24,000 nt of DNA from Peterkaempfera bronchialis (GTDB taxonomy: Bacteria; Actinomycetota; Actinomycetes; Streptomycetales; Streptomycetaceae), in assembly GCF_003258605.2 (NCBI RefSeq), contig NZ_CP031264.1, forward strand, positions 5,858,232 through 5,882,231. The letters are read 5' to 3'. Position 1 is the stretch's first letter, and each line of letters starts with the position of its first letter. Below the pieces are notes generated by a model. That model worked only from the letters and a program-made list of their open reading frames with translations. It was not told the origin of the DNA and made no database searches. A program made the translations under genes and the position numbers. Shown here in pieces: positions 6,177 through 17,803 of the stretch.

Positions 6177-6818
6177 ATGGCGGTTTCCGAGCGGGGGCCG
6201 CGCGAGCGGATGGTGTTCAGCGCGGCGCAGCTCATCCGGCGCGACGGGGTCGCCGCGACGGGCATGCGTGATGTCGTCGCCCATGCGCAGGCGCCGCGCG
6301 GATCGCTCCAGCACTACTTCCCCGGCGGCAAGGAGCAGCTTGTCAACGAGGCCGTGGACTGGGCCGGCCGCTATGCCGCCAAGCGCGTCGGCCGCTTCCT
6401 CGCCGAGCTGTCCGAGCCGTCCGAGCTGTCCGAGCTGTCCGAGCTGTCCGAGCCGTCCGAGCCGTCGCCGAGCGGGCTCTTCGCCGCGATGGTGCGGCAG
6501 TGGACCGATGAGTTCGAGGCGGTCGGGTTCGCGTCGGGTTGCCCTGTTGCGGCGGCGACGGTGGATTGCGCGGAGTCCACCGCCTCCACCAGAGCCGCTG
6601 CCGCAGCCGCGTTCGCCCGCTGGAACCGGCCGGTGGCCGAGGCGCTGAGGGAGATGGGCGTCCCGGCCCAGCGGGCCGACGCGCTCGCGACGCTGATGAT
6701 CAGCGCATTGGAGGGAGCGATCCTGATCGCCAGATCCGAGCAGGACGTCCGCGCCCTCACCACCGTGGCACGGGAACTCGGGCCCCTCCTGGACGGCGCT
6801 GTCACCCGAGGGGACTGA
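6177..6818 (+). CDS. TetR-family transcriptional regulator
   Basis: ATG 6177 is preceded by ggagg 6 nt upstream. The N-terminal HTH is [45 protein letters not shown]. It is divergent from the dehydrogenase. Confidence 0.85.
6402..6473 (+). repeat. In-frame 9-bp tandem repeat (TCCGAGCYG, 6 clean units plus degenerate flanks) inside the TetR gene
   Basis: It encodes [24 protein letters not shown], read directly from the sequence. Confidence 0.85.
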
Positions 6819-6859: not shown

Positions 6860-9172
6860 TCAGCCGCTGATCCGCAGGGCTGCCACCCCGTCCGGCGTGC
6901 CCGCCACCAGCTGCGCGTCCCCGGACAGGACCAGTGCCGTGACGGGGCAGCCGAGCCGCAGGTCCAGCTCGGTACCGACGTCGTCCAGCCGACGCACCCG
7001 CAGCAGCCCGTCCGCCCAGGCGGCGGCCACCACCAACCCCCGGTCGATAGCGACGGCGGCCACGGCGGTCACCGGGCAGGGGCGGGCGTCCCACGGTTCG
7101 GGCATCGGGTCGGCGCCGGGTCCCCAGAGCCGTACGCAGCCGTCCAGGCCACCGCTGACCAGCAGCGGCACACCCTGGCCGACCGGCGCGTCGGCCGGCA
7201 GGGCGACGCCCGAGAGTGCGGTGACCGGTCCCCGGTGGAGCCGGTGCCGCTCCTCCCGCCAGTGCACCCGACCCTCCACGTCGCCCACTGCGGGCGGCTC
7301 GCTCGGCAGCCCGGCGAGACAGGCCACCGCGCTCAGCTCGGCGGCGGCCCGCTGCCGCAGCAGATCCAGGGCCGCTGTCAGGTGGTACGGCTCCAGACCG
7401 GCCGGTACACCCGAGCCGGCGGCGGCGGCGGGGGCGGCGGTGGCGGTGGCGGGGGCGGCGGCGTCGAAGGCGGCCTGGATACGCGCCCCCACCTGGGCAC
7501 CCTGGTCGGCGGGGGCCAGCACCTCGGGCACGCCCCAGACGTCCAGCAGGACGACGCTGCCGCCCGGAGCGCAGGCCAGCGACCGCAGCGGCCTGGGCTC
7601 GGGGACGGCGATCCGTCCGGTCGGGTGACCGTCGGCCGCCGACAGGATGCGGACGGCGCCCGTCGGGTCGGCCAGCAGCAGCTGCCCGGCGTACGGGCCG
7701 GTGCCCGCCGCTGCGGCGGCCACCGGGCCCGGCCAGCGACCGGCCGAGCCCGCAGCGGGACGCCACTGCGCCCATTGCGCCTGCCACCCCGCGCCGGCGG
7801 CCGTCGGGGCCAGTCGCTCGGCGGCCGTGTCGTCGCGGCCCAGCAGCCGGGTCCGCAGTACGGCGGCTCGTACGGCCGGGTCGTCCTGCTCGACCAGCGC
7901 GGGCCCGGCGGCGTGCCAGGCGGCGGCGAGGGCGGCGTTCGGGGTACCGGCCTCCAGGGCGGCGGTCACCGCCACCGGGTGGGCGTGCACCAGGAAGGCC
8001 GGGTCGGAGAGCAGTTCGCCGGAGTTGCCCGCGAGCAGGGTGTGGGTGAGCAGCAGGGACAGCCGGTCGGGGTCGGCCGAGGGCAGGTCGGGGCCTCCGC
8101 CGTCGGCCCGGGGCACCGTCCGGGCCAGGGACCGCACCGCTGCGGTGTGGTCCGGTTCGGTGGCCGCGACCACGGAGGGCAGCGGCAGCGGACGCAGCCA
8201 CCAGCCATCGGCGGCGGGGGTGGCCGCCGGGAGCCATCGGGCGGCCTCCCGGACCGCTTCGGCCTCGCCGTACAGGGCGGTCCAGGCGTCCAGGCCGATG
8301 GGGCGGTCCACTGCCGCCAGCGCCGCGACGGCGGCCCTGGCGTTCTCCGGCACCGCCGCCCACCACGCCCGGCAGACGGCCTCCGCCTCCGCGCCGCCCG
8401 CCGCCGTGCCCGCAGTCTCTGCGCCGACCGCCCCCGCCGCTGCCTCCGCGTCAACCGCCTTCGCGCTCGCCGCTGCCTCTGCGCCGACCGCCCCCGCCGC
8501 CGCGTCGCCCGCACTGGACGGGGCCTGCGGGGTGCGGGCGGCGAGCAGGGCCAGGCCGGGGTTGGGGTACACCTGGTCCGCCGTGAAGGCGGAGTGGCCC
8601 CGGGTCGACGCGGCGTACCAGGCGGCGAACCGCTCGCGGTCCGTCCACTGCGGATCGTCCAGGTCCAGCACCGCCGGGTCGGCGACGGCGGTGAAGGCGT
8701 CGGCCAGGGCGGAGCCGGTCGCGGCGTCGACGACCATGCGCAGGTGGGGGAGGGCGAGCAGCGGGTCCAGCAGTTCGGAGACCAGGCGCTGCGGCTCGTC
8801 GGGCAGCCCGGGGCCGCCCGCCAGGTGCAGGTCGGCGACGCAGACCACGGTGGTGCGGGCGTCCTGCTCCAGCGCGGCGACCAGATCGCCGGGCGTACGG
8901 GCGGGGACGTTCAGCTGGGCGGCCATCAGCCAGGTGGCGCTCCGCACCGTGAGACCGGCGGCGGGCAGCAGCGAGTGGACGCGCTGCGTGTGCGGCGTGG
9001 CCGGGTCGGTGCAGGCGGCGGCCAGCCATGCCAGCAGGTGGGTGCGGCCGCTGCCCGGCGAACCCGTGACCCGGCAGAGCCGAGGCGCCCGGTCGTCCTG
9101 CCGCCAGCCCAGCAGTGCCCGTCCGGCGGGCCGCCGTCCTGCCCGTAGCGGTGGTATCCGGCGCTCTTCCAC
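6860..9172 (-). CDS. P-loop NTPase (STAND/NACHT-like) with C-terminal WD40-type repeats; Walker A Lys replaced by Arg
   Basis: GTG 9172 has gggaggagag 6 nt upstream and lies 23 nt after the upstream stop. Walker A is GSPGSGRT and Walker B-like is TTVVCVADL. The C-terminal WD-like blades are LLVSGGLDGCVRLWGP, AAAWADGLLRVRRL, LVAGTPDGVAALRI and LLADPTGAVRIL. The track ORF N-terminus (9173-9556) overlaps the upstream gene and was discarded. Confidence 0.75.
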   Translation of the reverse strand: MEERRIPPLRAGRRPAGRALLGWRQDDRAPRLCRVTGSPGSGRTHLLAWLAAACTDPATPHTQRVHSLLPAAGLTVRSATWLMAAQLNVPARTPGDLVAALEQDARTTVVCVADLHLAGGPGLPDEPQRLVSELLDPLLALPHLRMVVDAATGSALADAFTAVADPAVLDLDDPQWTDRERFAAWYAASTRGHSAFTADQVYPNPGLALLAARTPQAPSSAGDAAAGAVGAEAAASAKAVDAEAAAGAVGAETAGTAAGGAEAEAVCRAWWAAVPENARAAVAALAAVDRPIGLDAWTALYGEAEAVREAARWLPAATPAADGWWLRPLPLPSVVAATEPDHTAAVRSLARTVPRADGGGPDLPSADPDRLSLLLTHTLLAGNSGELLSDPAFLVHAHPVAVTAALEAGTPNAALAAAWHAAGPALVEQDDPAVRAAVLRTRLLGRDDTAAERLAPTAAGAGWQAQWAQWRPAAGSAGRWPGPVAAAAAGTGPYAGQLLLADPTGAVRILSAADGHPTGRIAVPEPRPLRSLACAPGGSVVLLDVWGVPEVLAPADQGAQVGARIQAAFDAAAPATATAAPAAAAGSGVPAGLEPYHLTAALDLLRQRAAAELSAVACLAGLPSEPPAVGDVEGRVHWREERHRLHRGPVTALSGVALPADAPVGQGVPLLVSGGLDGCVRLWGPGADPMPEPWDARPCPVTAVAAVAIDRGLVVAAAWADGLLRVRRLDDVGTELDLRLGCPVTALVLSGDAQLVAGTPDGVAALRISG
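8417..8500. repeat. 60-bp-period in-frame tandem duplication inside the NTPase-WD40 gene
   Basis: The identical 24-mer ctctgcgccgaccgcccccgccgc occurs at 8417-8440 and 8477-8500. It encodes a duplicated AAGAVGAE... Ala-rich segment. Confidence 0.75.
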
Positions 9173-9195
9173 GGTGCTCTCCTCCCGTGCGCCGG

Positions 9196-9975
9196 CTACT
9201 GCTGCTCGGCCACGTGCATCATCAGGTCCTTGATGCCCTGCTCCCGGGAGTCCGCGGTCTCCCCGTAGTCGAAACTGTGGGTGAACTCGGCCTCCGGGAA
9301 GGTACGAGCCATCCACAGCGCACAGTAGTGACCGGGCATCAGACAGGGCTCCAACTCGCAGTAGACCCTGGTGACCGCCTCCGGCTGGACGCCCGCAGCC
9401 GAGAGCCGGTGCCACACCAGCTCCTCGGGGTGCGGCAGGCCGGGCGCGGTGGAGTCGGTGACGATCTGGCGTTCGCCGCGCGCGCCGACGTACTCGAAGG
9501 CCGCCGAGAAGTGGACGTTCAGCGGGTGGCGGATGTCGTCCAGCACCCGGGGCCACCAGCCCTCGCGGTCCGCGAACGCCGCCTCGTCGATGTCGCGCAG
9601 CTCCGCGCGCAGCCGGCGGTAGGTCGCCAGCGCGGCGTCCATGCCATGGGCGTCGTCGATACCGGGCAGCAGCCGGTCCAGGGTCAGCAGCGAGGCGGCG
9701 AATGCCTCCGTGGTGCTGTTGACCGGCATCGGTTCGTTCAGCAGCAGCGCCCGTACGCTGCCGTCGTCGGCCAGTCGGAGCTCCGCGCCCCGGTCGCTGC
9801 CGAGCCGCAGCCCGCCGTCCTCGGCCTCGTCCCGCACCTCCGGCGCCGCGAAGTACGGCCCCACCTGCACCGGCAGCCCCACGGACCCCAGCAGCCCGGG
9901 GCCACCGGCGTACCGGTGCAGTCCACCGGGCCCGAAGTGGGTGGTGAGGGCGGTCTCAAGGTCGCTGCTGCTCAT
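9196..9975 (-). CDS. SUKH-4 immunity-like domain fused to a C-terminal SCP1.201/DddA-family deaminase domain
   Basis: The N-terminal ~150 aa parallel the neighbouring SUKH-4 protein (GLPVQVGPYF, LRLGSDRGAELRLADDGSV, PVNSTTEAFAASLLTL, AAFADREGWWPRVLDD). The C-terminus carries HPEE...VYCELEPCLMPGHYC, that is HxE plus PCx6C zinc ligands. The spacing is the same as in the toxin at 10596..11711. Confidence 0.75.
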   Translation of the reverse strand: MSSSDLETALTTHFGPGGLHRYAGGPGLLGSVGLPVQVGPYFAAPEVRDEAEDGGLRLGSDRGAELRLADDGSVRALLLNEPMPVNSTTEAFAASLLTLDRLLPGIDDAHGMDAALATYRRLRAELRDIDEAAFADREGWWPRVLDDIRHPLNVHFSAAFEYVGARGERQIVTDSTAPGLPHPEELVWHRLSAAGVQPEAVTRVYCELEPCLMPGHYCALWMARTFPEAEFTHSFDYGETADSREQGIKDLMMHVAEQQ

Positions 9976-10038
9976 ATGCTGAGCCCTTCACTGTCGTCGG
10001 CGGCAGGAGCCGACAATACCGGACCGTATGCGGGCGGT

Positions 10039-10578
10039 TCAGTACAGGAACGAATCGAAGTACTCGCTCCACAGTCCGTCCGGCTGGGCAAACGCGATGG
10101 AATCCCTGGTGCCGACCTCATTGCGGACGGATTCCTCGGCCCGGGAGAGATCCTCCTGGTCCGGGTCCTCGCCCGGAATCTCGCGGGCGATGAGGAGAAG
10201 GGTGTAGGCAAAGGCGGAGACATCCGCGTTCACCGGCTCGTACAACTCCTCGGCACCCGGCGAGACATAGACGACCCCGGTGTCCCGGTCGATGTAGACG
10301 CCGGCGTCGCGGACCGAGATATAGCCGATTTTCAGGAGATCCCGGTCCTCCCAGGCGTCGAGCTCCACCTCGTCCTCGGGCTCGATCGCGCCCCCCGGTG
10401 CCCCGGGGTTCGCGGCGGCGACCGCCGAGGTCATCAGGAAGAGACCGGAGCAGTGGGGGATGCCCGTCTCCCAGAGGAAGCGCGCCGTCTCCTGGTGGTG
10501 GACCAGGTCGGCGATCTTCTGCTCGTCAGCCCTCAGCAGGTCCCCGGTGGAGGACGCCGGGTCGATGTCGAAGAGCAC
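10039..10578 (-). CDS. SUKH-4 (SMI1/KNR4 superfamily) immunity protein, cognate to the upstream deaminase toxin
   Basis: GTG 10578 lies 17 nt after the toxin stop, with gggcgggag upstream. Motifs are ETARFLWETGIP, LLKIGYISVRDAGVYIDRDTGVVYV, EPVNADVSAFAYTLLLI and IAFAQPDGLWSEYF. The remainder of track ORF 10039..11733 is a junk extension. Confidence 0.7.
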   Translation of the reverse strand: MLFDIDPASSTGDLLRADEQKIADLVHHQETARFLWETGIPHCSGLFLMTSAVAAANPGAPGGAIEPEDEVELDAWEDRDLLKIGYISVRDAGVYIDRDTGVVYVSPGAEELYEPVNADVSAFAYTLLLIAREIPGEDPDQEDLSRAEESVRNEVGTRDSIAFAQPDGLWSEYFDSFLY

Positions 10579-10595
10579 GTGGGGACTCCCGCCCG

Positions 10596-11711
10596 CTAGT
10601 CGAAGTTCGTGGTGCCCGCGGTGCCGCGGTGGTTTCCGCCCGCATGGTCGGAAACCAGCTGGTCCATATACCTCTGGAACGGCGCATTGCGCAGACCCTT
10701 GTCTTTGACCGAGCTGTCGTACTGTACACCATGGGTGACGTCGAGATTGGGGTTGTGATCGGGGTCCTGCACGTACATGTAAAGCCACCGTTCGCATGTT
10801 GAACCGCTTTGGCACGGCCTTCGCTCGGTATACAGACCATCGATCCCGTGCTCCTGGCCACCCTTTACGAGCGGGTATCCGATCGAGCGCTCCGAGTGGT
10901 TTCTCTTGTTGCTGCTGCGGCCTACCAGTATGTAATCCTTGCCGTCCTCGCCGACATATCGGAGCGACGCGTAGTTGTTGCCCTTGCTGTAGTCCTGCTT
11001 GGCCCTTCTGACGTTCTCCACCGCGAGCGAGAGGTCCGACGGCTCGGTGAGGCGCCGGGACTGCACCACATCGGGATCGTCGTTGCCGACGCGCTTCCGG
11101 GTCCGCTGGTTGGTGGAGTAGGCCTGCTTCTCCTTCGCGGTCGGGTCGTTGACCTTGCCGTTCGAGGTCACCGAGTCGAGGTGGGTGCCCGTCGTACCGG
11201 TCACCTGCGAGAGCTTTCCGTTCTTCAGCTGGTGCACCTGGCCGTCGTCGTCCACGAAGAAGGTCGGGGTGTGCCCGCCGCCCCCTCCCTGCCCGCCGCC
11301 GTTGCCGGACCCGCCGTTCCCGGACCCGCCGTTCCCGGACCCGCCGCTTCCGGAGCCCTCGCCGCCGCCGTGTCCGATCCCGCGCGTGTCGTGCTGCCGG
11401 TCGAGGCTGTCGAGCTCGGTCCGGTGGTGCTGGTCGGTCTGCTTGGTGTTGCGGTGGTGCTGCTTGACCCGGTCGGCGATGCTGTCGAGGTGGCCGGTGA
11501 CCTTCCCCAGGCCGTCGTCGAGGACGTCCTCGACCCGCTCGATGGCGCCGACCAGGTGGCCGAAGGCACCTCCCTTGCCACCGCTTCGGCGGCGGCGGGC
11601 CGAGCCGGTCCGGAAGTGCGTGTGGCGGTCCCTGGCCTTCTGGCTGGTGGCCTTGAACCCCGAGTGCGCGTTCTCGAAGTCGGCGTCGTCCAGCTCCATC
11701 ATGTCGCTCAT
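10596..11711 (-). CDS. Polymorphic-toxin effector: helical N-region, Gly/Ser/Asn linker, C-terminal SCP1.201/DddA-family nucleic-acid deaminase domain
   Basis: The C-terminus reads NHSERSIGYPL...GLYTERRPCQSGSTCERW, that is HxE then PCx5C about 25 residues later, the signature of zinc deaminases. The ATG overlaps the upstream stop (ATGA), with GGGAGGGA 9 nt upstream. Confidence 0.8.
   Translation of the reverse strand: MSDMMELDDADFENAHSGFKATSQKARDRHTHFRTGSARRRRSGGKGGAFGHLVGAIERVEDVLDDGLGKVTGHLDSIADRVKQHHRNTKQTDQHHRTELDSLDRQHDTRGIGHGGGEGSGSGGSGNGGSGNGGSGNGGGQGGGGGHTPTFFVDDDGQVHQLKNGKLSQVTGTTGTHLDSVTSNGKVNDPTAKEKQAYSTNQRTRKRVGNDDPDVVQSRRLTEPSDLSLAVENVRRAKQDYSKGNNYASLRYVGEDGKDYILVGRSSNKRNHSERSIGYPLVKGGQEHGIDGLYTERRPCQSGSTCERWLYMYVQDPDHNPNLDVTHGVQYDSSVKDKGLRNAPFQRYMDQLVSDHAGGNHRGTAGTTNFD
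11296..11355. repeat. 15-bp in-frame tandem repeat x4 encoding (GSGNG)n linker in the toxin
   Basis: The units are ccgccgttgccggac / ccgccgttcccggac / ccgccgttcccggac / ccgccgcttccggag, read directly from the sequence. Confidence 0.85.
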
Positions 11712-12373
11712 ATGCCGAGTCCCTCCCGCACACCGGTCGTACCGGCGTTCAGACCGCTGTCGAGTGCCTTGCCCAGGTCCGGGACGTCGCCGTCACCCAG
11801 GTAGCTGTTGAGTCCGTCGGTGGCGAGCTGCACCACGATGCCCTCGATCACCGAGACCACCGCGTCCTCGACCATGCCGGTGGCGTAGTCGATCAGCTGC
11901 TGCTCCAGCTCGCGCAGCAGCCGGCGGCAGATCTCCCGGCAGACCGTGGTCTCGGCCAGCGCCGCCGCCTCCGAGAGCCCGAAGGTGAAGGCCGCGGCCG
12001 CCGTCGCGGCGGCGATCGAGGCGGCCAGGATGCCCAGCTGGACGACGACCGCGCCCTTGGCTATCTCCACGGCCACCGCCGCCCCGTCCAGCACCGTGCC
12101 CATCACCCGCAGGGCGTCGGCGAAGTCCTGGAGGTGCCCCTTGGAGGTCTTCTCCCAGGCGGCGGCGAACGCCTCGATCGCCTCACCTTTGCTGGACCCC
12201 GCAGTGAGGTGGTACGACGCCTGCGTCCCCGCCACCCGCAGGTCCTCCAGGTGGTCCGCCATCGCCCGGTAGTCGTCGGCCGAGGCCCGCAGCTCGTCCT
12301 CGTCCACATCGGGCCAGTCGATGCCGATCACGTCCAGGAGCCACACCAGCTCGCTCGGCAGCATCACGGACAT
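11708..12373 (-). CDS. WXG100-like / T7SS-associated N-terminal trafficking-domain protein encoded as a stand-alone gene
   Basis: The N-terminus MSVMLPSELVWLLDVIGIDWPDVDEDELRASADDYRAMA matches the LPxxL..lG..WPxxDED opening that I recall from N-termini of actinobacterial polymorphic toxins. It is followed by helices and a hydrophobic stretch AVVVQLGILAASIAAATAAAAFTF. No enzymatic domain is present. Confidence 0.6.
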   Translation of the reverse strand: MSVMLPSELVWLLDVIGIDWPDVDEDELRASADDYRAMADHLEDLRVAGTQASYHLTAGSSKGEAIEAFAAAWEKTSKGHLQDFADALRVMGTVLDGAAVAVEIAKGAVVVQLGILAASIAAATAAAAFTFGLSEAAALAETTVCREICRRLLRELEQQLIDYATGMVEDAVVSVIEGIVVQLATDGLNSYLGDGDVPDLGKALDSGLNAGTTGVREGLGI

Positions 12374-12832
12374 GCGCTCCCACCCCCGTACTCGCCCACC
12401 TGATGTCCAGTCAAACTATCGCGTATCCCACCCGCTTTCACGTGCACATGCCGGATCCGGTTTCCCCCGGGCCCTGTCCTGCCCGCCCATGCCGGGAAGG
12501 GAGTGGCGTCGGTGCCGGGGCTGGTGGGGTTGTGCTGTTCGACGGGGGCGTGAATTCGGGCTTTTCGGGGGCGGATGTGACGTGGGTTATATGGCGTGGG
12601 TCACATATGGGGCGGTTTGGCATGGTCTGCGGTGTGATCTGGGCAATATGACCTGCCTCACTATGGGCTCGCGTAGTGGATATTTGGGGCGTTCCGGTGC
12701 TGTTCGGGGCGGGTGCGGGGTGCTGGAGCCTGCTGGGTGTACGAGGCGCCTTAGTAAGAAGTGGTGATTGACCTGAGGTTTGAGCGCCGTCAACACTCGC
12801 TGATATCCCCCGACGGAAGAGGTAATTCCCGT
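12374..12832. promoter_or_regulatory. 459-bp divergent intergenic region (toxin operon <-> SLT gene), lower GC and G-tract-rich
   Basis: No ORF here has coding-like composition. It contains the inverted repeat atgtgac-N18-gtcacat (12575-12606), the direct repeat gtgctgttcg (12532 and 12697) and several GGGG tracts. Confidence 0.4.
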
Positions 12833-13312
12833 ATGCAGTTCTCCGCGATGTCCAAGTTCGGTCACCTGGTCAAGGCCAAGAGGATTTCCGTGGGCGTCGG
12901 CGCAGCCGGCGTCGCCGTTCTGGCCGGTGTTGTCGGCGCTTCGCCGGCCTCCGCTGCCACCGCCTCCAGCGCCTCCGCCGCCTCCGCCCGCAGCGGCAGT
13001 GTCGACGGCTGGATCAAGCAGTCGCTGTCCGTCATGCACAAGCACGGCATACCCGGCAGCTACAACGGCATCTACCGCAACCTGATGCGCGAATCCAGCG
13101 GAAACCCGATGGCCATCAACAACTGGGACTCGAACGCGAGGGCCGGCATCCCGTCGAAGGGGCTGCTCCAGGTCATCGAGCCGACCTTCAAGGCGTACCA
13201 CGTCAAGGGCACGTCCTGGGACATCTACAACCCGGTCGCGAACATCACCGCCGCCTGCAACTACGCGGCCCATGTCTACGGCTCGATCGACAATGTGAAC
13301 TCGGCTTACTGA
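12833..13312 (+). CDS. Secreted lytic transglycosylase (SLT/GEWL-like domain)
   Basis: The signal peptide is MQFSAMSKFGHLVKAKRISVGVGAAGVAVLAGVVGASPASA. The core is LMRESSGNPMAINNWDSNARAGIPSKGLLQVIEPTF, containing the ES..N catalytic Glu motif and the GLMQ-like GLLQV. ATG 12848 is an alternative start. Confidence 0.8.
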   Translation: MQFSAMSKFGHLVKAKRISVGVGAAGVAVLAGVVGASPASAATASSASAASARSGSVDGWIKQSLSVMHKHGIPGSYNGIYRNLMRESSGNPMAINNWDSNARAGIPSKGLLQVIEPTFKAYHVKGTSWDIYNPVANITAACNYAAHVYGSIDNVNSAY

Positions 13313-13330
13313 GTGTGAGCGACGGGCCTG

Positions 13331-13371
13331 CTGCGGACGCGGCCGATCCACCGGATCGGCCGCGTCCGCAG
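13331..13371 (+). terminator. Rho-independent-type terminator hairpin after the SLT gene
   Basis: ctgcggacgcggccgatcc (13331-13349) pairs perfectly with ggatcggccgcgtccgcag (13353-13371), giving a 19-bp stem followed by ttgctt. Confidence 0.75.
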
Positions 13372-13451
13372 TTGCTTCGCATGCGCGCGGTGCCTGCGAT
13401 TCGGGAATACTGGTCCCTATCAGCAAGCCGCGCACAAGGAGATGGTCACTG

Positions 13452-13556
13452 ATGACCTCCCATCCTCACTCCGCTTCGGCGGTCACGGGCGCCATCGTGC
13501 TGACCCTGACGGTGGCCGCGATGCTGGCCCTGGTGGCGATCCTGCTCTCGACCTGA
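13452..13556 (+). CDS. Small hydrophobic peptide, 34 aa (MTSHPHSASAVTGAIVLTLTVAAMLALVAILLST); below the ORF-track length cutoff
   Basis: AAGGAG (13436-13441) lies 10 nt upstream of ATG 13452. By hand count about 29 of the 32 codons between Met1 and the stop, leaving out the internal ATG, end in G or C. The peptide has one predicted TM helix. The stop is TGA 13554-13556. Confidence 0.5.
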   Translation: MTSHPHSASAVTGAIVLTLTVAAMLALVAILLST

Positions 13557-13834
13557 CGCCGACCCGTCCCGACCTGCGCGGACGCGGTCGGCGGAGCCCG
13601 CTCGGCGGTGGTCCGATTGGCGTAGCGGGACCGCCAGGGTGAGACTGGGATGCGTGAGGCATGTTCGAAGCATGCGTGCACCCGTCCCCGGTCGAACCGG
13701 AACCAGTACAGTCCGAAACCCAGCACAGCACGGACGGGTGTGACCGGCCCCAGCTACGCAAAGGCCGCCGTGCGGCCGATCCGACCGGGTCCTCCCCGAG
13801 TGCCCGGCAGCGCATCCCACCGGGACCGGTGCAA

Positions 13835-13848
13835 CTTCCCATGGGAAG
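13835..13848. promoter_or_regulatory. Perfect 14-bp palindrome CTTCCCATGGGAAG overlapping the rppA ribosome-binding site
   Basis: Read directly from the sequence. It ends 12 nt before the rppA ATG, and GGAAGGG at 13844-13850 is the likely SD. Confidence 0.35.
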
Positions 13849-13860
13849 GGCTCCAGTCAG

Positions 13861-14907
13861 ATGCCGACCCTTTGCCGTCCTGCCGTAGCGGTTCCCGAAC
13901 ACACCATCTCCATGGCGGAGACGCTTGCCCTGGCCCGCCGGCTGCACGCCGCGCACCCGCAACTCGGCCTGGTCCTGAGGCTCATCGAGAACACGGGTGT
14001 GCGTGAGCGCCATCTCGTACGCCCCATCGCCGAGACGCTGATCCACCCGGGCTTTGAAGCGCGCAACGCGGTCTATGAAGAGGAGGCCAAGGCGCGCGTC
14101 CCCGAGGTGGTCCGGACGGCGCTGGGCAGTGCCGACATCGGCAGCCGGGACATCGACGCGATCTTCTTTGTCTCCTGCACCGGGTTTCTGATGCCCTCGT
14201 TGACCGCGTGGATGATCAACAATCTCGGGTTCCGCAATGACACACGGCAGATCCCCATCGCCCAGCTGGGCTGTGCGGCGGGCGGCGCCGCGATCAACCG
14301 GGCGTGCGACTTCTGCCTCGCGTATCCGGAAGCCAACGCCCTGATCGTCGCCTGCGAGTTCTGCTCGCTCTGCTATCAACCCACCGACACCGGTGTGGGA
14401 TCGCTGCTGTCGAACGGGCTCTTCGGCGACGCGGTGGCTGCCGCAGTGGTCAGAGGCGACGGCGGCGTCGGAGTCCGGCTGGAGCGGAACAGCTCCTACC
14501 TGGTGCCCGACACCGAGGAGTGGATCTGCTACGCGGTCAAGGCGACCGGTTTTCACTTCCAGCTGGACAAGCGGGTGCCCACCACGATGGCGATGCTCGC
14601 TCCGGCCCTGCACACCCTGGCGGCCAGCCACGGCTGGGATGCCTCGGCGCTCGACTTCTACATCATCCATGCGGGCGGCCCCCGGATCCTCGAAGACCTC
14701 CGCCAGATCCTGGGCGTCGAGGCATCGGCCTTCCGGCACAGCAGGGGGACGCTCACCGACTACGGGAACATCGCCAGCGCCGTGGTGCTGGACTCGCTGC
14801 GCCGCATGTTCGACGAGGATTCCCTCCCCGACCGGGCCCAGGGGGTGATCGCCGGGTTCGGCCCCGGGATCACCGCCGAGACCTGCGTGGGGACATGGTC
14901 GGCGTGA
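13861..14907 (+). CDS. rppA: Type III polyketide synthase, 1,3,6,8-tetrahydroxynaphthalene synthase
   Basis: MPTLCRPAVAVPEH...FVSCTGFLMPSL (catalytic Cys)...IIHAGGPRIL (His)...YGNIASAVV (Asn)...GFGPGITAE. From memory this is near-colinear with S. griseus and S. coelicolor RppA. Confidence 0.95.
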   Translation: MPTLCRPAVAVPEHTISMAETLALARRLHAAHPQLGLVLRLIENTGVRERHLVRPIAETLIHPGFEARNAVYEEEAKARVPEVVRTALGSADIGSRDIDAIFFVSCTGFLMPSLTAWMINNLGFRNDTRQIPIAQLGCAAGGAAINRACDFCLAYPEANALIVACEFCSLCYQPTDTGVGSLLSNGLFGDAVAAAVVRGDGGVGVRLERNSSYLVPDTEEWICYAVKATGFHFQLDKRVPTTMAMLAPALHTLAASHGWDASALDFYIIHAGGPRILEDLRQILGVEASAFRHSRGTLTDYGNIASAVVLDSLRRMFDEDSLPDRAQGVIAGFGPGITAETCVGTWSA

Positions 14908-14958
14908 CCGAAGACCAGACGACAACCCCCGTGCTGGGGCTGGGAAGAGGAGCACACA

Positions 14959-16161
14959 GTGGCGACCGAGACCCGCGTATGGGACTGCCCCTTCAACCAC
15001 AACCAGGCGCTTGAATTCGACCCGCTGCTCAAGCAGTTGCTCACCGAGGCGCCCATCGCCCGCATCAGCATGCCCCATGGCGACGGCCACGCCTGGCTGG
15101 TGACCCGGTACGAGGACGTCTCCACCGTGGTCACGGACCAGAGGTTCAGCCGCGCCGCCGGTATCGGGCGAGACCTGCCGAGGATGACGCCCGAGCCGAT
15201 CGCCCAGAGCGAGGCGATCAACCTGATGGACCCGCCGGCGCACACCCGGCTCCGCAAGCTGGTGGCCAAGGGGTTCACCCCCGCCCAGGTCGAGCAGATG
15301 GAGCCCAAGGTGCACGCCATCGTGGACCGTCTGCTGGACGAGATGGCCGCGCAGCCGGCTCCGGTCGACTTCACCCGGCACTTCGCGTCACGGCTGCCGA
15401 TCACCACCATCTGCGAGGTCCTGGCCATACCCGAGGCCGACCAGCCGCGCATCCGGCAACTCGCGATGGCGATGATGTCCACCTCCTCGGGGCGGCAGGC
15501 GACGCGCGAGGCCAAGGCCGAGCTGCGGGCGTACTTCCTGGACCTGTCGGCCCGCCGCAGGGAGCAGCCCGGTGAGGACCTGATCAGCGCGCTGGCCATG
15601 GCCCGGGACGGGGACGAACTGCTCGACCCGACGGAGCTGGCCGTTATGGCCATGGTGCTCACGGTCACCGGGCATGACACCAGCACCTACCAGCTCAGCA
15701 ACATCCTCTACACCCTGCTCACCCACCCCGAGCAGCTGGCACTGCTGCGCTCCCGTCCCGAGCTGCTGAACCAGGCGGTCGAGGAGCTGCTGCGGTTCAT
15801 CCCGTTCCGCCATGGAGTCGGCATCGCCCGGGTCGCCACGGAGGACGTGGAACTCGGCGGGGTGACGATCCGGGCAGGCGAGGTCGTGCATGTCTCCTAC
15901 CTCACCGCCAACCACGACCCCGAGGTGTTCGAGCGGCCGGACGAGCTGGACATCGAGCGTCCCCCCGCGATGCATATGACGTTCGGTCACGGCACGCACT
16001 ACTGCATCGGCGCCAACCTGGCCCGCGCGGAGCTGCGCATCGCCTTCGCATCGCTGCTCCAGCGCTTCCCCGAGCTGCACCTCGCCGTCCCCGCCGAACA
16101 GGTCCCGTGGCACATCGGCTCCATCTGGCGCTACCCCGAGGAGCTGCCCATCGCGTGGTAG
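14959..16161 (+). CDS. Cytochrome P450, CYP158A/P450mel-like (flaviolin/THN biaryl-coupling type by context)
   Basis: GTG 14959 has ggaagaggag upstream. The I-helix is AMVLTVTGHDTS, the ExxR motif is EELLRF and the heme loop is FGHGTHYCIGANLAR. It lies immediately downstream of rppA, as in known rppA loci. Confidence 0.9.
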   Translation: MATETRVWDCPFNHNQALEFDPLLKQLLTEAPIARISMPHGDGHAWLVTRYEDVSTVVTDQRFSRAAGIGRDLPRMTPEPIAQSEAINLMDPPAHTRLRKLVAKGFTPAQVEQMEPKVHAIVDRLLDEMAAQPAPVDFTRHFASRLPITTICEVLAIPEADQPRIRQLAMAMMSTSSGRQATREAKAELRAYFLDLSARRREQPGEDLISALAMARDGDELLDPTELAVMAMVLTVTGHDTSTYQLSNILYTLLTHPEQLALLRSRPELLNQAVEELLRFIPFRHGVGIARVATEDVELGGVTIRAGEVVHVSYLTANHDPEVFERPDELDIERPPAMHMTFGHGTHYCIGANLARAELRIAFASLLQRFPELHLAVPAEQVPWHIGSIWRYPEELPIAW

Positions 16162-16216
16162 CCCCGCAGCCCTCCCGTCGGTATCCCGTCACCGGTCCAG
16201 CAGGGGTTCGCTCAGC

Positions 16217-17803
16217 ATGGAAGACCTTCATCGTGATGCATCCGGCCTCCCGGCCGACACCCGGGGGCGGCTGGCGGAACTCAATGACACCAAGCGGCGG
16301 GCGCGTTGCGGCCCGAGCGGTCGGGCGACCGAGGTGCAGCATGCCAAGGGGAAGCTGACGGCTCGGGAGCGGATCGCGCTGCTGCTGGACGAGGGTTCGT
16401 TCAGCGAGGTGGAGCCGCTGCGGCGGCATCGGGCGTCCGGTTTCGGGCTGGAGGCCAACAAGCCCTACACCGATGGTGTGGTGACCGGGTGGGGGACGGT
16501 GTACGGGCGGACGGTGGTGGTCTATGCCCATGACTTCCGGATCTTCGGTGGTGCGCTGGGTGAGGCCCATGCGCAGAAGATCCACAAGATCATGGACATG
16601 GCCATCTCGGTGGGGGCGCCGCTGGTCTCGCTGAACGACGGCGCGGGTGCCCGGATCCAGGAGGGCGTGACCGCCCTCGCCGGTTACGGCGGCATCTTCC
16701 AGCGCAACAGCCGGGCGTCGGGGGTGATCCCGCAGATCTCGGTGATGCTCGGCCCGTGCGCGGGCGGTGCGGCGTACTCGCCGGCGCTGACCGACTTCGT
16801 CTTCATGGTCCGCGAGACCTCGCAGATGTTCATCACCGGCCCGGATGTGGTCAAGGCGGTCACCGGCGAGGACACCTCCCATGACGGGCTGGGTGGCGCG
16901 GATGTGCACGCGGAGCTGTCCGGGGTGGCGCACTTCGCCTACGACGACGAGCAGACCTGCCTGGAGGAGGTCCGCTATCTGCTCTCGCTCCTCCCGCAGA
17001 ACAACCGCGAGACACCCCCGGCGGTGCCGGCCGACGACCCGGCCGACCGGCGCTGCGAGGCGCTGCTGGACCTGGTCCCCGCCGACCCGGGCCGCTCCTA
17101 TGACATGCGCAAGGTGATCGAGGAACTGGTCGACGACGGCCAGTACATGGAGGTCCACGAGCGCTGGGCCACCAACGTCATCGTCGCGCTGGCCCGCCTG
17201 GACGGGCGGGTCGTCGGCCTGGTCGCCAACCAGCCGCAGTCCCTCGCCGGGGTGCTGGACATCGAGGCATCCGAGAAGGCCGCCCGCTTTGTGCAGCTGT
17301 GCGACGCCTTTGACATCCCGCTGCTCACCCTGCTGGACGTGCCCGGCTTCCTGCCCGGCGTCGACCAGGAGCACGGCGGCATCATCCGGCACGGCGCCAA
17401 GCTGCTCTACGCGTACTGCAACGCCACCGTGCCGCGCATCCAGCTGATCCTGCGCAAGGCGTACGGCGGCGCCTATATCGTGATGGACTCCCGCTCCGTC
17501 GGTGCCGACCTCTCCTACGCCTGGCCCACCAATGAGATCGCCGTGATGGGCGCCGAGGGCGCCGCCAACGTCATCTTCCGCCGGGAACTCGCCGCCGCCG
17601 ACGACCCCGAGGCCATGCGGATCCGCATGGTCAAGGAGTACAAGTCCGAGCTGATGCACCCCTACTACGCCGCCGAACGCGGCCTGGTGGACGACGTCAT
17701 CGACCCCGCCGACACCCGGGCGGTCCTCATCCGCGCCCTCGCCATGCTGCGCACCAAGGACGCGGCCCTGCCGCACCGCAAGCACGGCAACCCGCCGCAG
17801 TGA
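16217..17803 (+). CDS. Acyl-CoA carboxylase carboxyltransferase (beta) subunit, AccB-like
   Basis: QHAKGKLTARERIALLLDEGSF, NDGAGARIQEG, GPCAGGAAYSPALTDF and VPGFLPGVDQEHGGIIRHGAKLLYA are colinear with Streptomyces PccB/AccB. Ile at codon 421 (KAYGGAYIVMDS) is AccB-type. Confidence 0.9.
   Translation: MEDLHRDASGLPADTRGRLAELNDTKRRARCGPSGRATEVQHAKGKLTARERIALLLDEGSFSEVEPLRRHRASGFGLEANKPYTDGVVTGWGTVYGRTVVVYAHDFRIFGGALGEAHAQKIHKIMDMAISVGAPLVSLNDGAGARIQEGVTALAGYGGIFQRNSRASGVIPQISVMLGPCAGGAAYSPALTDFVFMVRETSQMFITGPDVVKAVTGEDTSHDGLGGADVHAELSGVAHFAYDDEQTCLEEVRYLLSLLPQNNRETPPAVPADDPADRRCEALLDLVPADPGRSYDMRKVIEELVDDGQYMEVHERWATNVIVALARLDGRVVGLVANQPQSLAGVLDIEASEKAARFVQLCDAFDIPLLTLLDVPGFLPGVDQEHGGIIRHGAKLLYAYCNATVPRIQLILRKAYGGAYIVMDSRSVGADLSYAWPTNEIAVMGAEGAANVIFRRELAAADDPEAMRIRMVKEYKSELMHPYYAAERGLVDDVIDPADTRAVLIRALAMLRTKDAALPHRKHGNPPQ

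Follow-up and report, generated by a model that had tools for sequence, protein, structure and literature searches.

A linker-free SUKH-4–deaminase fusion in a conserved actinobacterial toxin, immunity and STAND NTPase module: a possible deaminase restrained in cis

A single gene in the 24,000-nucleotide stretch of Peterkaempfera bronchialis DNA analysed here (the window) encodes a SUKH-4 domain fused to an XOO_2897-type deaminase. The reading that we tentatively favour is that its product is a cytoplasmic deaminase restrained in cis by SUKH-4, within a conserved module that contains a STAND NTPase. We infer that the deaminase would be catalytically competent and held in check by the covalently attached SUKH-4 domain, and that the fusion would serve as a conditional effector within the cell that makes it. 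Once unleashed, the deaminase would deaminate cytosine in nucleic acid, and the adjacent effector-less STAND NTPase would be the candidate sensor and switch, relieving or directing it in response to a putative biological trigger. Published work identifies SUKH-4 as the immunity family that belongs to XOO_2897 toxins (Iyer 2011, PMC3239186).

The open reading frame runs from an ATG at 9975 to a TAG at 9196-9198, with a ribosome-binding-like motif (GAAGGG) 5′ of the start codon and a GC3 of 0.93, and its product is 100% identical to a Peterkaempfera bronchialis protein (P0001). The initial annotation had read the gene as a genuine in-frame fusion with SUKH-4 first and the deaminase second, and a Pfam domain search places both domains in that order (Table 1). 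PF14435 (SUKH-4) matches residues 29-147 (E = 1.8e-13, 51.4 bits against a cutoff of 25.5) and spans profile positions 36-179 of 179, while PF14440 (XOO_2897-deam) matches residues 156-253 (E = 2.5e-26, 92.2 bits against a cutoff of 27) and spans profile positions 4-100 of 101, both above the gathering score. The fusion is not covered by any NCBIfam model. The zinc and catalytic residues H182, E184, C211 and C218 are all intact: the histidine of H182-P-E184 stands 29 residues before C211, and a six-residue spacer (LMPGHY) leads from there to C218. An export domain had been reported missing. Indeed, Pfam and hydropathy revealed no trafficking domain, WXG, LXG, signal peptide or transmembrane segment (the peak Kyte-Doolittle 19-residue window is 0.97), and the protein is therefore probably cytoplasmic.

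Table 1. Features of the fusion gene and of the surrounding module (positions in the window)
Feature	Position	Strand	Basis
Apaf-1-like STAND NTPase with WD40 repeats	6860..9172	-	AlphaFold2, Apaf-1 PDB matches, weak Pfam
SUKH-4::XOO_2897-deaminase single-chain fusion gene, 259 aa	9196..9975	-	ORF and Pfam hits, both domains
SUKH-4 domain proper, residues 1-139, more variable half	9559..9975	-	Pfam PF14435
Junction helix, residues 140-153, WWPRVLDDIRHPLN	9517..9558	-	Single DSSP helix H140-153 in model
XOO_2897-type deaminase core, residues 154-259	9199..9516	-	Pfam PF14440 and model secondary structure
Codons H182-P183-E184, zinc ligand and catalytic glutamate	9424..9432	-	Sequence
Codons C211 to C218, PC-x6-C zinc-binding motif	9322..9345	-	Sequence
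Stand-alone SUKH-4 immunity-type gene, 179 aa, GTG start	10039..10578	-	Pfam PF14435 E 3.1e-23
XOO_2897-deaminase toxin gene, 371 aa	10596..11711	-	Pfam PF14440 E 1.4e-10 and motifs
WXG100-like (T7SS-substrate-type) N-terminal module gene, 221 aa	11708..12373	-	Pfam WXG100_2 E 3.4e-15, WXG100 E 6.4e-06

Each half of the fusion had been described as paralogous to a neighbouring protein, and BLASTP bears this out. The N-terminal half aligns with the stand-alone SUKH-4 protein (E = 8e-07, 37% identity over 63 aa), in an alignment that holds the blocks quoted originally, PVNSTTEAFAASLL / PVNADVSAFAYTLL and AAFADREGWW / IAFAQPDGLW. The C-terminal half aligns with the deaminase core of the toxin (E = 2e-06, 23% identity over 99 aa). 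At the level of sequence, the paralogy to both neighbours is real but distant. The motif geometry is also as first described, with 29 residues from His to Cys and an x6 spacer in the fusion, and 28 residues and x5 in the toxin, where H272-S-E is followed by a first Cys at 300 and the spacer QSGST.

AlphaFold2 modelled the fusion with a pLDDT of 92.8 and a pTM of 0.88. The model has no low-confidence linker, and the final SUKH-4 helix continues directly into helix 1 of the deaminase. Because of this pTM, of the missing linker and of the continuous, invariant junction helix, the two domains are predicted to form one rigid compact unit. With no flexible linker, SUKH-4 would dock less freely than a separate immunity protein, and the fused domain may bind differently from one acting in trans. 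The topology of the deaminase in the model is α1-β1-β2-α2(HxE)-β3-α3(PCxnC)-β4-α4 (β1 157-163, β2 169-175, α2 183-193, β3 201-208, α3 218-225, β4 230-235, α4 241-258), and a fifth strand is absent. In a Foldseek search of the PDB the best match was APOBEC3H (E = 0.012, probability 0.99), and AID, APOBEC1, APOBEC2, APOBEC3F, blasticidin-S deaminase, cytidine deaminase and DddA (6u08) were matched as well; E-values for the deaminase fold are weak and the list is consistent, with AID/APOBEC (helix-4 division) nearest. This topology and the APOBEC-type matches exclude that the C-terminal domain lacks a deaminase fold or zinc ligands, a concern voiced when the gene was first described. CapRel structures were also named among the PDB matches of the fusion.

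Two signatures set the XOO_2897 clade apart, an acidic residue between strand 3 and helix 3 and a truncation after helix 4 that leaves strand 5 missing (Iyer 2011, PMC3239186, Table 1). The fusion family carries both, since the position of E207 is E in 153 sequences and D in 11, and the model ends with β4 and α4. By sequence and model, the C-terminal domain is a zinc deaminase of the XOO_2897 clade, APOBEC-like and of the helix-4 division. Other members of the clade deaminate cytidine in ssDNA in base-editor assays (preprint 10.1101/2023.05.21.541555). Inter-domain contacts were sought by mean-field DCA on 164 sequences (Meff about 71), which gave no reliable contacts to the zinc site, the clade signal being dominant; the top pairs formed a clique (A9, R121, E125, R127, S157, Q258) typical of subfamily signal. 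A search of PDB chain sequences with the family profile returned nothing meaningful.

Database searches yielded 282 matches to the fusion, and both domains are present in all of the top 120. Orthologues of 250-296 aa number in the hundreds and are found in Streptomyces, Kitasatospora, Streptacidiphilus, Embleya and Actinomadura, while the 36 genome loci with the fusion belong to at least two actinobacterial families. A strain-specific scar, which the initial annotation had kept in view, is excluded by this spread over many genera. Conservation and identity by region were computed on 164 family members: H182, C211 and C218 are invariant (164/164), as are W140 and W141 of the junction helix (164/164), and E184 is kept in 162 of the 164. 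Mean pairwise identity is 45% for the SUKH-4 domain versus 59% for the deaminase, and is highest of all in the junction segment (76%). The N-terminal half is rich in indels in the family alignment, and the deaminase has well-conserved surface loops (PGHYC, FTHSFDYG and SRE). The fusion is an old, vertically maintained family member and no orphan cassette.

The distribution of the fusion is patchy, with multiple copies in some genomes (L001/L024; L020). A few genomes (L022, L029) carry intact copies without toxin or NTPase, some copies adjoin the core genes pyrE and fbaA, and four are found on Streptomyces plasmids. The one plasmid record inspected (359 kb, linear) has the fusion beside a hypothetical protein, a deaminase-domain protein and a SUKH-4 gene; the module can be plasmid-borne. 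No homologue was found in the phage genomes searched. The architecture is already present in databases. As had been stated at the outset, no experimental characterisation turned up, the searchable literature yielding only computational papers from the Aravind group and one base-editor screen, none of them on the fusion itself.

The fusion belongs to a conserved module of five parts in about 31 of the 34 genomic loci: a WXG100-like T7SS-type deaminase toxin, one or more free SUKH-4 genes, the fusion itself and an Apaf-1-like STAND NTPase with WD40 repeats. In the window, the genes are co-oriented and tightly spaced (gaps of 17, 63 and 23 nt). The WXG100-like gene overlaps the toxin start by ATGA, the free SUKH-4 gene begins 17 nt past the toxin stop codon, and the NTPase gene lies 23 nt downstream of the fusion. 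The toxin has a helical N-terminus, a Gly-rich linker and a C-terminal deaminase with HSE and PC-x5-C. Among related loci, the WXG-like domain and the toxin form a single ORF in 8, the WXG-like protein co-occurs with the toxin in 29, and most have one or two free SUKH-4 genes between toxin and fusion. Measured against the window proteins, median identity is highest for the fusion (47%), followed by the NTPase (39%), the WXG-like protein (35%), the toxin (33%) and the free SUKH-4 protein (30%), which makes the fusion the best-conserved member of the module. The closest relative, L001, has kept the fusion and the NTPase (78% and 62% identity), its toxin has decayed to fragments and its WXG gene is gone. 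A scan of the operon for promoters and terminators found nothing, and PADLOC defence models gave no meaningful match for any of the five module proteins. This module, uniting the fusion with the neighbouring toxin, the free immunity gene and the NTPase, had been missed by the initial annotation.

The NTPase was modelled by AlphaFold2 with a pLDDT of 90.0 and a pTM of 0.89. Its best PDB matches are full-length Apaf-1 (3shf, E = 1.1e-13; 3sfz), its Pfam matches (NACHT, AAA_16, WD40) are weak, and a search of PDB chain sequences gave nothing meaningful. Model and Apaf-1 match agree on an architecture of NOD, helical domain and repeat sensor. There is no N-terminal effector or adaptor domain, the P-loop starting from residue 37 after one short helix, and Pfam found no domain shared between NTPase and fusion. 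Arg takes the place of the Walker A lysine in 14 of 40 homologues, and it does so in the window as well. The NTPase is present in 31 of the 34 informative loci and lies directly 3′ of the fusion in 24, where its start is 28-154 nt away; in several loci the two are not adjacent. Paralogues of the NTPase bear the NCBIfam type VII secretion system-associated domain (NF033532), and one adjoins an unrelated T7SS_signal and ADP-ribosyltransferase toxin locus, in which no equivalent immunity-toxin fusion was found. Because of these paralogues, the NTPase may serve toxin loci generally rather than the fusion.

The same two families are also covalently paired in the reverse order. In a sister family (22 two-stretch representatives, 9 of them checked with Pfam; examples are P0272, P0273 and P0274), the order is X-deaminase-Pro-rich linker-SUKH-4. 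As in the fusion, HxE and C...C are intact and the genomes are of actinomycete type. On the other hand, the linker of the sister family is flexible, proline-rich and 30-40 residues long, its N-terminal extensions vary (Mrr_cat/NA-iREase1, collagen-like), and its neighbours differ from those of the fusion, namely a WHH-nuclease::SUKH-1 protein, itself a single-chain fusion, and a YwqJ-deaminase/SUKH-3 pair. Covalent pairing of cognate domains has probably been selected, to judge from the two orders in separate families, from the WHH-nuclease::SUKH-1 fusion next to the sister family and from the published immunity role of SUKH-4. Together with the near-constant STAND partner, these fusions in both orders lend indirect support to a self-inhibited conditional effector.

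Such an arrangement recalls CapRel(SJ46), which Zhang et al. reportedly described in Nature in 2022 as a fused toxin-antitoxin defence protein with demonstrated autoinhibition and trigger. Like CapRel(SJ46), the fusion unites a toxic enzyme and a neutralising-type domain in one polypeptide, a likeness at the level of architecture alone, and by analogy it may follow the logic of a self-restrained effector released by a trigger. Its folds and chemistry are nevertheless unrelated to those of CapRel, and it has no PADLOC match. The fusion shares both families (PF14440 and PF14435) with published XOO_2897 toxin/SUKH-4 systems (Iyer 2011; Zhang 2011, 2012), and its deaminase has the HxE, the PCxnC, the acidic residue before PC and the missing strand 5 of these toxins. 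The canonical case, a WXG-type toxin and a free SUKH-4 gene, lies immediately upstream in the same operon. Unlike in canonical systems, the two domains are joined directly, without a linker, in a single chain that starts with the immunity domain. Secreted polymorphic toxins differ from it too: the fusion protein has no trafficking module, whereas the upstream toxin has a WXG100-like partner or domain, and instead of rapid divergence at the tip the fusion shows the highest conservation (median 47% versus 33% for the toxin). Furthermore, the gene that follows the fusion is not an immunity gene but a STAND NTPase, the immunity-type domain being upstream in the chain.

Apaf-1/STAND conflict systems (Kaur 2020, PMC7159879) resemble the module in the NOD, helical and WD40 parts of the neighbouring protein, in their filamentous actinobacterial hosts and in having an enzymatic effector alongside. 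In contrast to them, the NTPase has no N-terminal effector or adaptor and no adaptor in common with the fusion, and Arg often stands in place of its Walker A Lys; that work describes no SUKH or deaminase partner. DddA-DddI is similar in pairing a zinc cytidine deaminase toxin fold, matched by the fusion as noted above, with a dedicated neutralising protein. However, DddA belongs to the SCP1.201 clade (C-terminal hairpin division), is secreted by a T6SS and has a separate, unrelated immunity protein, whereas the clade of the fusion is APOBEC-like and its inhibitor-type domain is fused.

The fusion stands right after one or two free SUKH-4 genes, in an immunity position, and it might instead be chiefly an immunity protein in a poly-immunity array, a reading to which we give a modest chance. 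SUKH-4 would then bind one or more toxins in trans, and the deaminase would be a scaffold, dimerisation partner or decoy; the targets would be the neighbouring toxin or incoming XOO_2897 toxins. The greater variability of the SUKH-4 half (45% versus 59%, with indels) is expected of a diversifying binding surface, the intact copies without toxin or NTPase (L022, L029) are like orphan immunity genes, and immunity genes are often kept as arrays (Zhang 2012, PMC3482391). Yet the zinc ligands and the catalytic Glu, which one would expect to disappear from a domain that is purely a scaffold or decoy, are near-invariant here and lie in the better-conserved half of the protein, and the toxin already has an adjoining free SUKH-4 gene. 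If the fusion were merely an extra immunity protein, it would be an ordinary matter. The invariant catalytic residues are also consistent with a conserved enzyme that edits or modifies a specific DNA, RNA or nucleotide in the cell and that was recruited from a toxin-immunity pair. SUKH-4 would then bind proteins for targeting or regulation instead of inhibiting the deaminase. For a domain derived from a toxin, conservation is unusually high, the surface loops included, some copies lie beside pyrE and fbaA, and SUKH domains are general protein-binding adaptors in eukaryotes (PMC3113570). We nevertheless consider such an enzyme unlikely, given the patchy distribution with several copies in some genomes (L001/L024, L020), the copies on large linear plasmids, and the toxin, immunity and STAND context that almost always surrounds the gene.

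An accessory role, shared with the NTPase, in the production, holding or export of the WXG/T7SS deaminase toxin, such as that of a chaperone-like partner for its deaminase domain, seems to us quite unlikely. The co-orientation and tight gaps of the module argue for it, as do the type VII secretion system-associated domain on NTPase paralogues and the paralogue beside the T7SS_signal and ADP-ribosyltransferase toxin locus. But a chaperone has no need of invariant catalytic residues, L001 keeps fusion and NTPase despite its decayed toxin and lost WXG gene, and the ADP-ribosyltransferase locus lacks an equivalent fusion. Finally, the place of the fusion 3′ of a full toxin-immunity pair is usual for orphan cassettes, and its domain order is the one expected if an immunity gene had lost its stop codon and run on into an orphan toxin cassette behind it. 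An accidental joining of this kind, that is, a recombination scar or decaying pseudogene, is nonetheless extremely improbable. Across many genera the orthologues are intact and equally long, and each has a start codon and a ribosome-binding site of its own. The junction helix is invariant, AlphaFold2 confidently models one compact unit, and the deaminase shares only 23% identity with that of the toxin. We rejected this origin on the conservation data and on the lack of any DNA-level repeat common with the toxin gene.

Returning to the deaminase restrained in cis, we also entertain, as an improbable extension of it, a device for innate immunity or self-destruction that arose from a toxin-immunity pair and consists of two proteins, the fusion and the effector-less NTPase. 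In such a device an invader would unleash the SUKH-4-restrained deaminase. An incoming XOO_2897 toxin or a phage factor would compete for SUKH-4 or be sensed by the WD40 propeller, and the output would be intracellular cytosine deamination, in the style of an integrated decoy or guard. If this were true, the fusion would be a natural protein-caged DNA/RNA deaminase.

The fusion family is large and conserved. If SUKH-4 gates the deaminase, the fusion would amount to an APOBEC-like enzyme that is caged by nature and brings its own protein switch. For base-editor engineering, it would then offer a deaminase that is compact and already fused to a cognate inhibitor domain. For bacterial conflict and immunity, it would represent a case in which multicellular bacteria have redirected a toxin-immunity pair inward and linked it to an Apaf-1-like sensor.

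The initial annotation had described a SUKH-4 domain joined to a deaminase in a single chain, and profile searches, BLASTP and motif spacing bore out this architecture together with the motifs and blocks it had listed. Pfam places SUKH-4 at residues 29-147 of the fusion (51.4 bits, cutoff 25.5) and XOO_2897-deam at residues 156-253 (92.2 bits, cutoff 27). The protein is 100% identical to a Peterkaempfera bronchialis database entry, and database annotations of fusion proteins already name both domains. As had been proposed, the N-terminal part is paralogous to the free SUKH-4 protein encoded nearby (E 8e-07) and the C-terminal part to the deaminase core of the neighbouring toxin (E 2e-06), with the quoted blocks aligning in both cases; H182 and C211 are separated by 29 residues, with PC-x6-C, and the corresponding toxin residues by 28, with PC-x5-C. 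The fusion was also said to lack a secretion or trafficking domain, and examination for a signal peptide, a transmembrane segment and a WXG domain found none of the three.

The AlphaFold2 model of the fusion, built from a 48-sequence family alignment, is confident (pLDDT 92.8, pTM 0.88) and has no low-confidence linker. In this model residues 140-153 form one continuous helix that closes the SUKH-4 profile as its final helix and serves as helix 1 of the deaminase, followed by b1, b2, a2 (HPE), b3, a3 (C211 to C218), b4 and a4. There is no fifth strand, an absence that is a hallmark of the XOO_2897 clade (Iyer et al. 2011, PMC3239186). The best Foldseek PDB matches are APOBEC3H, AID, APOBEC1, APOBEC2 and APOBEC3F, followed by blasticidin-S deaminase, cytidine deaminase and DddA; their E-values (0.012 to 0.3) are weak, but the list of deaminases is nonetheless coherent. 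Covariation signal was swamped by subfamily structure. SUKH-4 is listed as the immunity partner of XOO_2897 toxins (Iyer et al. 2011, PMC3239186), and in the model the deaminase is predicted to form one rigid unit with a member of the domain family that neutralizes its own clade.

A search of 5.8 billion proteins yielded 282 matches to the fusion, the best 120 of which are all 214-296 aa long, carry both domains and come from Peterkaempfera, Kitasatospora, Streptomyces, Embleya and Streptacidiphilus. Scanning one genome per species gave 36 fusion loci, Actinomadura and Spirillospora among them. H182, P183, E184, C211 and C218 are invariant in the 48-sequence alignment; among 164 non-identical members, H182, C211 and C218 are present in all and E184 in 162. 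Averaged over sequence pairs, identity is highest in the junction helix (WWPRVLDDxRHPLN), at 76%, against 59% in the deaminase part and 45% in the SUKH-4 part. Judged from its sequence, the fusion is an APOBEC-like deaminase with an intact catalytic motif, strongly constrained and predicted to be cytoplasmic. A DNA repeat common to the fusion and toxin genes was sought and none was found, which, with the conserved family and its 36 loci, rules out a strain-specific scar and makes a scar a vanishingly improbable account of the gene. Streptomyces plasmids carry copies as well; on the one examined (359 kb, linear) the fusion has as neighbours a hypothetical protein, a deaminase-domain protein and a SUKH-4 gene.

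In the window the fusion is one of five co-oriented, tightly spaced genes (6860-12373, minus strand). The toxin ATG overlaps the stop codon of the WXG100-like gene as ATGA, placing the two in different reading frames, as in about 17 related loci, and GGGAGGAG precedes the NTPase gene. The 15-nt repeat unit within the toxin gene, in three and a half tandem copies, encodes a Gly-rich GSGNG linker between the helical N-terminus and the deaminase domain. Beyond the WXG end of the module, the genes probably form a small biosynthetic cluster with no relation to the fusion.

Genes and other features of the fusion locus and its flanks (window coordinates)
Feature	Position	Strand	Remarks
WXG100-like protein, 221 aa	11708-12373	-	Pfam WXG100_2, E 3.4e-15
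XOO_2897-type deaminase toxin, 371 aa	10596-11711	-	deaminase at C-terminal end, E 1.4e-10
Tandem repeat in toxin gene	11296-11355	-	
Stand-alone SUKH-4 protein, 179 aa	10039-10578	-	E 3.1e-23; 17 nt past toxin gene
SUKH-4::deaminase fusion	9196-9975	-	63 nt past free SUKH-4 gene
P-loop NTPase with WD40 repeats, 770 aa	6860-9172	-	23 nt past fusion
Alanine-rich insert of NTPase	about 8000-8520	-	residues about 220-390
TetR-like ORF with short SEPSEL-type peptide repeat	about 6300-6818	+	past NTPase stop-codon end
SLT-domain secreted protein, type III polyketide synthase, cytochrome P450, acyl-CoA carboxyltransferase	12761-17803	+	upstream of WXG100-like gene

We then compared the five window proteins by tblastn with the 36 fusion loci, 34 of them informative. 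The NTPase was found in 31 of these 34, the WXG-like module in 29 loci and the toxin in 31, usually with one or two free SUKH-4 genes between toxin and fusion. In 24 loci the NTPase gene follows the fusion on the same strand after 28-154 nt; other orders exist (fusion-NTPase-toxin-SUKH-4, or the NTPase divergent from the other module genes). It is the gene set that is conserved, not any one arrangement, and the fusion belongs to a conserved module of toxin, immunity and STAND genes. Compared with the window proteins, the fusion has a median identity of 47%, the NTPase 39%, the WXG-like protein 35%, the toxin 33% and the free SUKH-4 protein 30%; in a few genomes only the fusion is retained. In L001, the closest relative, the toxin has decayed to fragments, whereas the fusion (78% identity) and NTPase (62%) are intact. 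In the window, G+C is lower in the toxin and free SUKH-4 genes (0.66-0.67 over 10039-11711) than in the fusion (0.72) and NTPase (0.79; 6860-9975). Both observations suggest quicker turnover of the toxin-immunity cassette than of the fusion-NTPase pair. The WXG-like module and toxin, which jointly resemble a canonical WXG/T7SS-type polymorphic toxin, are fused into one ORF of about 580 aa in eight loci (L005, L007, L015, L017, L019, L021, L026 and L035) and are split elsewhere, so that the toxin exists in both forms.

For the AlphaFold2 model of the NTPase (pLDDT 90.0, pTM 0.89) the best structural match is full-length Apaf-1 (3shf, E 1.1e-13), and the many further matches are WD40 propellers. 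The protein carries neither an effector nor an adaptor domain at its N-terminus, its P-loop starting at residue 37. In the P-loop (residues 37-44, GSPGSGRT) the Walker A lysine is replaced by arginine; 40 homologues have K (25), R (14) or S (one) at this position. The Walker B region is non-canonical, and the protein may bind nucleotide without hydrolysing it. The alanine-rich insert (about 170 aa, partly of low model confidence) contains imperfect DNA repeats, such as 8410-8446 and 8470-8506, and is missing from the 590-600-aa orthologues adjoining other fusions. In longer paralogues there is an NCBIfam 'type VII secretion system-associated' domain. An 875-aa paralogue of this kind, with the domain (NF033532) at its C-terminus, adjoins a T7SS_signal plus ADP-ribosyltransferase toxin, an ADP-ribosylglycohydrolase and small unknown genes (paralogue locus L037, 8001-14119), so that the NTPase family has a general link to T7SS toxin loci.

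When 1.84 billion cluster representatives were searched with a profile, 703 matched, and about 20 clusters have the order seen in the fusion. In 22 representatives the match falls in two stretches, and all nine checked were X-deaminase-SUKH-4 proteins with a proline-rich linker of 30-40 residues and varied N-termini (Mrr_cat/NA-iREase1, collagen-like). By these profile matches, the XOO_2897 deaminase and SUKH-4 are fused in both orders. One such protein adjoins a WHH-nuclease::SUKH-1 single chain and a YwqJ-deaminase/SUKH-3 pair; in the sister-family loci L041/L042 (7003-7998 and 5553-6657) that chain has 331 aa, with WHH/Colicin-DNase and SMI1_KNR4 (SUKH-1), and the pair is separate. Single-chain toxin-immunity proteins seem to cluster, and the joining of toxins to their cognate immunity families is recurrent in these bacteria. 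In a further sister-family locus (L043, 8001-10751), a 339-aa deaminase-SUKH-4 protein directly follows a 907-aa SUKH-4-containing protein, with a uracil-DNA glycosylase family gene two genes downstream; this proximity would fit DNA cytosine deamination but may be chance.

How the fusion works can be read in several ways. We tentatively favour, at somewhat less than even confidence, a reading in which SUKH-4 would hold the deaminase of its own chain in check and the protein would act as a conditional effector inside the cell, with the Apaf-1-like NTPase as a candidate switch. The recurrent joining of cognate partners, in either order, invariant catalytic residues and a near-constant STAND neighbour devoid of an effector argue for this restraint in cis; the zero-length linker, the wider association of the NTPase family with T7SS toxins and the occurrence of some fusions without the NTPase weaken it. 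That the fusion is an extra immunity protein is unlikely. Somewhat less probable again is a recruited cellular editing enzyme, and an accessory factor for toxin export is slightly more doubtful still.

SUKH domains are known to be fused to toxins 'on occasions' (Zhang et al. 2012, PMC3482391), and ssDNA cytidine deamination is known for the XOO_2897 clade from a base-editor screen (preprint 10.1101/2023.05.21.541555). In the literature searched we found no experimental work on members of this fusion family, nor any account of the family as such, its conservation, its STAND neighbour or its reverse-order sister family. The fusion is of moderate interest as it stands, and would be of far greater interest if restraint of the deaminase by its own SUKH-4 domain proved true.
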